DNA of 64,000 nt, taken from positions 32,001 to 96,000 of the IMG/VR virus record IMGVR_UViG_3300028182_000001; one strand, written 5' to 3'. Below are positions 1-698 of this stretch, one piece after another (the first letter of the stretch is position 1; each line of letters starts with the position of its first letter). This DNA is from a virus. Both the position numbers and the translations under genes were made by a program. The notes under the pieces were generated by a model. It was not told the origin of the DNA and did no database searches. It was given only the letters and a program-made list of their open reading frames with translations.

Positions 1-255
1 CAACAAGTGTTAGACGCTCGAATTGATAAGGTTTTAGAAGAGGAAGGTGGCAAAGACCGTAAGGTTGATGACGCTGACCACGCTCGCATCGTAAAAAATG
101 CAGAGTCTCGCTACAAACCAAATCTTGTCGATCCTATTGGTATCCGTAAGGTTATCAATCAGATGGAAGAAGATATCAATTCGTTCGAGTTAGATGTGGA
201 TGCTTCATTATCCGAAATCAACGCTCGTACGGATATCGAGTTCGAAGTCAAATAG
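1..255 (+). CDS. 5'-truncated helical/coiled-coil protein of unknown function (C-terminal part only)
   Basis: Frame is open from base 1 (CAA CAA GTG TTA...) to TAG at 253-255. The C-terminus VDPIGIRKVINQMEEDINSFELDVDASLSEINARTDIEF is amphipathic-helical. The start lies outside the window. Confidence 0.8.
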   Translation, partial: QQVLDARIDKVLEEEGGKDRKVDDADHARIVKNAESRYKPNLVDPIGIRKVINQMEEDINSFELDVDASLSEINARTDIEFEVK

Positions 256-289
256 TAGGTTGACTCCCTCTCTCTGAGAGGGACAAGCC

Positions 290-652
290 TTTGCTAACAC
301 ACCGACACTTACCAACCAAATGCGTCCCTTACTAACGATATAGTGAGAACAAGATACTTTTGACAGATTAGTCAAAACTAAGCGGTAGCCAAATTGGGCT
401 AATACATATATGATAGTACCCCCGAGGAAGCGGGGTACAAACAGGTGTAAGAAGCTCAAAGCTAAGTGTTCAAAGGTTGACAAGTTAAAAGTTCTTATGC
501 GTTCAAAGGTAATAGTTGTACAGGTCAAAGAGGGCAAGATGAGTCTCCAAAAGAGAGACTAGCCCGTAAAGGTCGATAAAATCCACTGTAAAAGGTTTGC
601 GAGAGTTCATTTGTGGTCTCCGTAGGTGCCTAGTGGCTGGTGTGGTGGCAAA
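290..652 (+). ncRNA. Candidate large structured non-coding RNA with internal heptamer-repeat tract
   Basis: TTTGCTAACACACC (290-303) pairs with GGTGTGGTGGCAAA (639-652). Internal hairpins lie at 328-347, 358-377, 386-401, 416-438, 532-565 and 598-624. A 7-nt repeat tract spans 441-533. An intrinsic terminator follows, and there is no credible + strand ORF. Confidence 0.7.
441..533 (+). repeat. Degenerate 7-nt repeat array (AAAGTTC-like; G4 invariant, T6 in all but the last unit)
   Basis: ACAGGTG 441, GAAGCTC 451, AAAGCTA 458, AGTGTTC 465, AAAGGTT 472, CAAGTTA 481, AAAGTTC 488, TGCGTTC 498, AAAGGTA 505, ATAGTTG 512, ACAGGTC 520, AAAGAGG 527. Further copies at 568 and 591. Confidence 0.7.
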
Positions 653-662
653 TAATAGATGT

Positions 663-698
663 AAAAGACTCCTCGTCTCCTTTCGAGGGGTCTTTTTT
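663..698 (+). terminator. Intrinsic terminator
   Basis: AAAAGACTCCTCG-loop-CGAGGGGTCTTTT followed by a T run. Confidence 0.85.

Follow-up and report, generated by a model that had tools for sequence, protein, structure and literature searches.

The stretch of DNA analysed here (the window, 64,000 nt, one strand) covers bases 32001-96000 of a complete 158,403-bp phage genome with direct terminal repeats. In the region of interest the genome is 84-91% identical to Bacillus cereus-group Caeruleovirus phages (Bcp1, BM15/Hobo, Kioshi, JBP901) of the Herelleviridae. The local order is an array of at least nine tRNA genes, a gene for a 221-aa protein that starts 8 nt after tRNA-Met, about 440 nt without a gene, a ‘tail spike’ gene, and then a small protein, portal and protease. 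The gene-free stretch holds a structured non-coding RNA followed by a terminator. The parts (window coordinates) are as follows.

1-255 (+): 3′ end of the 221-aa protein gene, with the stop codon at 253-255 (whole gene at 1090-1755 in L001, the phage sequence that holds it whole); PHROG 1491, predicted helical homodimer with a distant DIP1984-like fold
265-283 (+): hairpin H0 just after the stop codon, without a U-tract; possibly a processing or pause site
289-655 (+): the whole structured RNA, about 367 nt
290-303 (+): 5′ strand of P1, the closing helix, pairing with 639-652
306-312 (+): 5′ strand of P2, pairing with 622-628
315-322 (+): 5′ strand of P3, pairing with 608-617, the loop of stem Pb, which makes a pseudoknot
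323-347 (+): H-type pseudoknot; S1 is 323-325 with 335-337 and S2 is 328-334 with 341-347
358-438 (+): three variable hairpins (358-377, 386-401, 416-438)
441-582 (+): A-rich 7-nt-periodic repeat tract (unit about NUCARNG), interrupted by hairpin 532-565
583-655 (+): knotted 3′ domain; Pa is 583-587 with 632-636, Pc is 593-595 with 629-631 and Pb is 601-604 with 617-620; it also holds the 3′ strands of P3, P2 and P1
663-698 (+): intrinsic terminator that ends the probable gene-plus-RNA transcription unit

An RNA structure at this place, carrying a heptamer array, had been proposed in an earlier note from the sequence alone, and we confirm that observation. The gap after the stop codon, hairpin 265-283, closing helix 290-303 with 639-652, hairpins 328-347, 358-377, 386-401, 416-438 and 532-565, and the terminator are present as described. 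One detail was not confirmed: the note extended the closing helix by pairing 304-309 with 632-637, whereas covariation replaces this extension by P2, P3 and Pa. The hairpin listed at 598-624 is a short stem (601-604 with 617-620) whose loop forms P3.

Conservation and folding of the RNA

As RNA, the + strand of 256-700 folds at −140 kcal/mol (z-score −5.2; 0 of 100 shuffles fold as well), while the − strand gives a z-score of −2.6. The stretch is conserved in 29 phage records, at 84-91% identity in Caeruleovirus and about 72% in Tsarbombavirus. The downstream ‘tail spike’ gene (755-1594) is a presence/absence cassette: it is missing in Xoo-sp15, CM1, Thurquoise, Deep Blue and BCP78, where the non-coding stretch stays attached to the upstream gene and is followed by the small portal-associated gene. 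The Xoo-sp15 record (MN364664, ‘Xanthomonas phage Xoo-sp15’, UNVERIFIED_ORG) is 90-98% identical to the Bacillus Caeruleovirus of the window in this region, so its host label looks wrong.

We aligned 20 phages and found invariant blocks separated by hairpins whose sequence and length change while pairing is kept. RNAalifold found 71 pairs, 10 of them with double compensatory changes among these closely related phages, including pairs in the closing rod (C-G to U-A in P1, C-G to A-U in P2 and A-U to G-C in P3); many G-U pairs make sense only on the + strand. Compensatory changes occur in every helix. H0 is kept by compensatory changes in Caeruleovirus and Tsarbombavirus only, and is absent in other clades. 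The three variable hairpins are absent or replaced in the shorter bacterial forms, while the 3′ domain is nearly invariant among the phages. ORFs in the gap differ in strand, place and length among the 20 phages, including the small ORFs annotated in the Kioshi and BC-VP records, and indels are not multiples of three.

The fold was then examined in 62 diverse, non-redundant RNAs of the family. For the three 3′ domain helices, 83% of cells are paired against 62% when shuffled, and covariation is 0.53 against 0.17 shuffled (0 of 500 shuffles reach it) and 0.09-0.16 when partners are slid; Pa is 98% paired, with four of its five pairs covarying. The H-type pseudoknot has covariation 0.40 against 0.15 shuffled (0 of 500), even though about a third of the rows are misregistered by MAFFT. 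P1 has wholly different sequences in different clades yet stays complementary: cognate strands fold at −24.8 kcal/mol against −16.7 kcal/mol for non-cognate strands, and the cognate partner ranks in the top five in 57 of 62 cases. For P2 and P3 the same comparison discriminates only weakly (median rank 16-18 of 61), because these strands are short and conserved; their support rests on collinear, clade-specific complementary pairs and on the phage alignment. Outside the phages, P2, P3 and S1 have only moderate statistical support. Folding z-scores of the isolated 3′ domain were uninformative, as it depends on long-range partners. Since the 3′ strand of P3 is the loop of Pb, and the 3′ strand of P2 lies inside Pa and Pc, the core contains at least three pseudoknots.

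The repeat tract is periodic across the family. Base identity autocorrelates at lag 7 (0.42) and lag 14 (0.41), against 0.29 for shuffled sequences. Sites of the core motif are spaced exactly 7 nt apart 200 times and 14 nt apart 58 times, with 4-13 sites per RNA. Heptamer sequences differ between clades, with only about four positions kept. The tract is 38% A and folds no better than shuffled sequence (z-score −0.6), which is consistent with a single strand and is what a phased binding platform would look like.

Linkage of gene and RNA in phages and Bacillota

The 221-aa protein matches PHROG 1491 over its full length (E 3.4e-80; label ‘tail fiber protein’), but no Pfam, NCBIfam or PADLOC family, and has over 100 clusters of relatives of about 205-215 aa. 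The earlier note had named the absence of a conserved structured region behind homologous genes as grounds for refutation; we looked in both directions and the linkage held. In all six distant homologue loci fetched (35-53% identity; four phage-like contigs behind tRNA arrays, a Symbiobacteriaceae and a Bacillus pumilus chromosome), the gene is followed by a 370-740 nt gene-free gap. A profile of the phage RNA hit four of these gaps end to end (E 1e-28 to 1e-38) and the B. pumilus gap in part. A scan of one genome per species found 104 further loci in Bacillus (pumilus group, paralicheniformis, haynesii), Brevibacillus, Paenibacillus, Lysinibacillus, Solibacillus, Exiguobacterium, Clostridium, Roseburia and others.

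Iterated nhmmer then found the RNA after the gene in 84 of 87 loci, and all 85 homology hits lie on the gene's strand; one metagenome-assembled contig (L085) has two tandem copies of the RNA (2227-2409 and 2570-2775) after a single protein gene. The RNA ends 260-310 nt after the stop codon in bacteria and 365-416 nt after it in most phages. The iterated profile could drift, although the position, the strand, an independent model and the visible motifs all agree. This independent covariance model, R1, built from the 3′ domain alone, gave exactly one hit in the phage, in each of four whole bacterial genomes, and in each of 17 of 91 genomes of the family. In 19 of 20 whole-genome hits the protein gene lies directly upstream on the same strand. 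The exception (L145, a Bacillus pumilus-group genome, 1440-1606) is a locus where a deletion removed the gene and the 5′ half of the RNA, leaving the 3′ half next to the amino-acid permease gene.

By tblastn, the protein was found in 742 phage records, including T5-like phages (the T5.085 homologue) and Vibrio, Pseudomonas, Klebsiella, Erwinia, Lactococcus and Aeromonas phages. In four of these that we fetched (from T5-like, Vibrio, Pseudomonas and Klebsiella phages), the gene again precedes a 360-830 nt gap that holds the RNA. The T5-type element is at least 90% conserved in 432 of 440 matching records; of the 30 rows listed, 25 show no annotated feature over it, 2 show hypothetical proteins and 3 belong to records without annotation. 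In T5 relatives the module lies a few genes from the Rad anti-retron locus (PMC10644984). The tRNA region of T5 is known to tolerate deletions. In some phages (L130:2841-2913, and downstream of the RNA in loci L039 and L044) a tRNA gene, instead of a terminator, starts within about 10 nt of the RNA's 3′ end; RNase P cleavage could then define that end. IMG/VR scans by protein and by a 25-nt conserved pattern added only the same phages.

In bacteria, sigma-A-type promoters stand before the genes, the RNA begins within a few nucleotides of the stop codon, and no terminator lies between gene and RNA, so the two are probably co-transcribed. Bacterial neighbours are ordinary and differ between genera: homologues sit singly beside metabolic genes, far from any phage genes, while phage copies lie in early tRNA regions. 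These contexts argue against a tail-fibre role and for an autonomous module. Of 23 soil metatranscriptome runs that hold the stretch, contigs of four cover the whole 16-kb phage region at flat depth; these show neither a discrete RNA nor even transcription as opposed to carried-over DNA, and we do not use them as evidence.

An AlphaFold (AF2) model of the protein is confident (pLDDT 91.6), with long helices and a small sheet formed by the N-terminal strand, a hairpin and the C-terminal strand. The best match is PDB 3KDQ, the uncharacterised DIP1984 protein: it is the top hit by sequence profile against PDB (E 0.006), by Foldseek and by VIA-align (Z 9.9, rmsd 6.9, 150 of 152 residues aligned; next entry at 8.1). 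For helical folds this level is suggestive, not proof. A two-copy model supports, but does not show, a symmetric homodimer: the score is 0.71 against a best control of 0.00, a mark reached by 20 of 30 solved homo-pairs and 1 of 23 single chains; the runs share at least 97% of contacts and partner pLDDT is at least 88. The alignment used was our own, and the distant relative 3KDQ is solved as a multi-chain crystal, so likeness may contribute. No recognised RNA-binding domain was found in the protein, and its ESM Atlas neighbours are all ‘hypothetical protein’.

Interpretation of the module

The analysis itself establishes that the RNA fold is under selection, that the tract has a 7-nt phase, and that gene and RNA are inherited together across phages of Gram-positive and Gram-negative hosts and across Bacillota chromosomes. 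The rest is inference, which we hold with moderate confidence, slightly better than even. In this view the gene and the RNA form one two-part module, in which the RNA is transcribed as a 3′ extension of the gene up to the terminator and is the protein's dedicated partner. The core, its ends locked by P1-P3 and pseudoknots, would form a stable body, and the single-stranded tract of about 8-12 seven-base units would be a loading platform on which several protein dimers bind side by side, probably as they are made from the same transcript, giving a discrete ribonucleoprotein. Expression of a discrete RNA and protein-RNA contact are both inferred here without direct evidence. The position in early tRNA and anti-defence regions of phages suggests action on host RNA, translation or immunity rather than a virion part, and hints at a role in host takeover but proves nothing. 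Against this reading, the RNA is more elaborate than a protein landing pad needs and may have an activity of its own, and the heptamers could equally reflect RNA-RNA or other contacts.

The earlier note's interpretation is therefore supported only in part. Its claims of an undescribed structured RNA, of probable co-transcription and of linkage to the upstream gene hold, and its suggestion of a distant DIP1984/DUF6847 relationship has weak but consistent support. The module, which the note took for a phage system, is not phage-specific. Processing of the RNA out of the mRNA, binding to the protein and a toxin-antitoxin-like or anti-defence role, as the note proposed, remain hypotheses.

Among other explanations, a purely cis-acting 3′ UTR that only stabilises, localises or autoregulates the upstream mRNA is possible but unlikely. 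Tight linkage alone would fit it, the element always lies in cis, directly after the stop codon and before the terminator, and the one locus that lost the gene also lost half of the RNA. However, among the phages the 3′ domain is nearly invariant while the protein is about 52% identical, three or more pseudoknots plus a 7-nt array is far more than known bacterial 3′ stabilisers need, and one contig has two tandem RNA copies after one gene. We give a little less weight to a toxin-antitoxin-like or defence/counter-defence pair, in which the RNA would hold a harmful or effector protein in check by a type III-like logic and phages would carry a copy to subvert or mimic the host system. The module is self-contained, occurs in varied contexts in both phages and hosts, is patchy among genomes (17 of 91 family genomes), and in T5 lies near the Rad locus; yet there is no PADLOC match, the RNA lies downstream rather than upstream behind a terminator, the repeat unit is 7 nt and not about 36 nt, no nuclease fold appears in the predicted protein model, and the gene is kept at one locus across Bacillus pumilus-group species beside ordinary metabolic genes.

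Equally doubtful is that the RNA is the active part, as a ribozyme or an RNA-only assembly like ROOL and GOLLD, with the protein only a chaperone or cofactor. The ornate pseudoknotted core with invariant unpaired nucleotides speaks for it, as does the location in phage tRNA arrays, reported for ROOL and GOLLD (PMC9241854, PMC12286853); against it, none of 4227 Rfam models matched, and among the 20 whole-genome hits the only one without the gene was the deletion remnant. None of these three alternatives is excluded. A DNA site (palindrome, origin, packaging site or promoter array) or a small protein-coding gene is very unlikely and is contradicted by the data: the region stands just upstream of the structural gene block and carries annotated small ORFs in two records, but the pairing is strand-specific with G-U pairs, the homology hits lie on the gene's strand, the ORFs are not conserved in frame, strand or length, and the element occurs in bacterial chromosomes.

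If the favoured reading is right, a complex RNA fold with a dedicated protein partner has gone unannotated in a textbook phage lineage, in Bacillus cereus-group phages considered for biocontrol, and in common Bacillota such as the Bacillus pumilus group, Lysinibacillus, Brevibacillus, Paenibacillus, Exiguobacterium and clostridia. It would add a new class to the short list of large bacterial non-coding RNAs, with the linked protein and tractable hosts as an obvious handle for experiments, correct a propagated ‘tail fiber protein’ annotation and give a concrete candidate function for the gene-poor tRNA regions of large phages. A bolder and rather unlikely possibility is that DIP1984-like helical proteins and their downstream pseudoknotted RNAs form an ancient, previously unseen class of bacterial and phage ribonucleoproteins, in which an RNA with a 7-nt register templates a protein oligomer of defined length, deployed by large lytic phages (T5-like, Bastille-like and others) from their tRNA operons to act on host RNA metabolism, translation or immunity.

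Comparison with known systems

A cmscan search with Rfam 15 models (including RNase P, ROOL, GOLLD, OLE, 6S, group I/II introns and HEARO) found nothing in the RNA of the window, of 7 distant loci and of 8 further loci, the only hit being a terminator-like SpF11 match at E 0.24. Retron RNA and ToxI likewise gave no model match. Literature searches on T5.085, DIP1984, DUF6847 and phage structured RNAs found no description of the module. We also tested lnc001 and lnc002, published abundant RNAs beside the tRNA genes of Staphylococcus phage K (PMC9241854; L125:1595-2230 and L126:1180-2333), as possible homologues; there was no nhmmer or tblastn similarity, and phage K lacks the protein there. Herelleviridae therefore carry at least two unrelated tRNA-adjacent large RNAs.

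By architecture the module recalls tmRNA with SmpB (the smpB-ssrA gene pair): a small protein gene is followed by a roughly 260-420 nt RNA whose ends pair into a long rod, with an H-type pseudoknot right after the rod's 5′ strand, then a single-stranded tract, then further pseudoknots before the 3′ strand. However, there is no tRNA-like domain, T-arm, CCA end or conserved tag reading frame; ARAGORN found 9 tRNAs but no tmRNA in L001, no Rfam tmRNA model hit the window RNA at E up to 1, and the predicted protein is helical and not an SmpB barrel. By presumed mechanism the closest analogue is the CsrB/RsmZ-type sponge RNAs with the CsrA dimer, where an RNA of about 350 nt displays many copies of a short motif that could bind several copies of a dimeric protein. 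Here the motif is a 7-nt-periodic unit (about NUCARNG) in a tract with no excess structure, not GGA in hairpin loops, the RNA is encoded in cis behind its presumed partner's gene and has a large knotted core, and the protein is unrelated to CsrA; a sponge-like working model is not excluded by this.

OLE RNA with OapA/B/C, and the ROOL and GOLLD RNAs, are likewise large, ornate bacterial or phage non-coding RNAs of unknown or poorly known function; OLE has dedicated protein partners, and ROOL and GOLLD lie near tRNA genes in phages. The present RNA has no homology to their Rfam models, is smaller, and has a strict one-to-one gene linkage that ROOL and GOLLD lack. The module meets the defining features of none of tmRNA-SmpB, the Csr-type sponges, OLE, ROOL and GOLLD. 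Type III toxin-antitoxin systems (ToxIN and relatives) also pair a protein gene with a repetitive non-coding RNA in both bacteria and phages. There, tandem repeats of about 34-45 nt lie upstream of the toxin gene and are separated from it by a terminator; here the order is reversed, no terminator lies between gene and RNA in bacteria, the period is 7 nt and the RNA has a complex non-repetitive core. Searches for a ToxN/AbiQ-type endoribonuclease gave no PADLOC or Pfam match, and the protein model is an all-helical fold.

The predicted fold of the window protein is shared with the DIP1984 (DUF6847) protein 3KDQ at the suggestive level given above. The window protein is about 50 residues longer and gives no hit to Pfam DUF6847; only 4 of 39 family members give weak hits (best E 0.018), below the gathering threshold. 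DUF6847 genes in sampled Bacillota genomes (loci L152-L164) are also followed by a conserved gene-free element of about 200 nt, without Rfam match, that has an invariant G-rich 3′ block and a pseudoknot-like motif resembling the one in the window RNA family. The downstream elements of the two families are not alignable apart from that motif, the alignment of the DUF6847 elements was too poor to assess covariation, and the DUF6847 element has no obvious heptamer tract. Still, the presence of such elements behind both genes suggests a wider protein-RNA superfamily.
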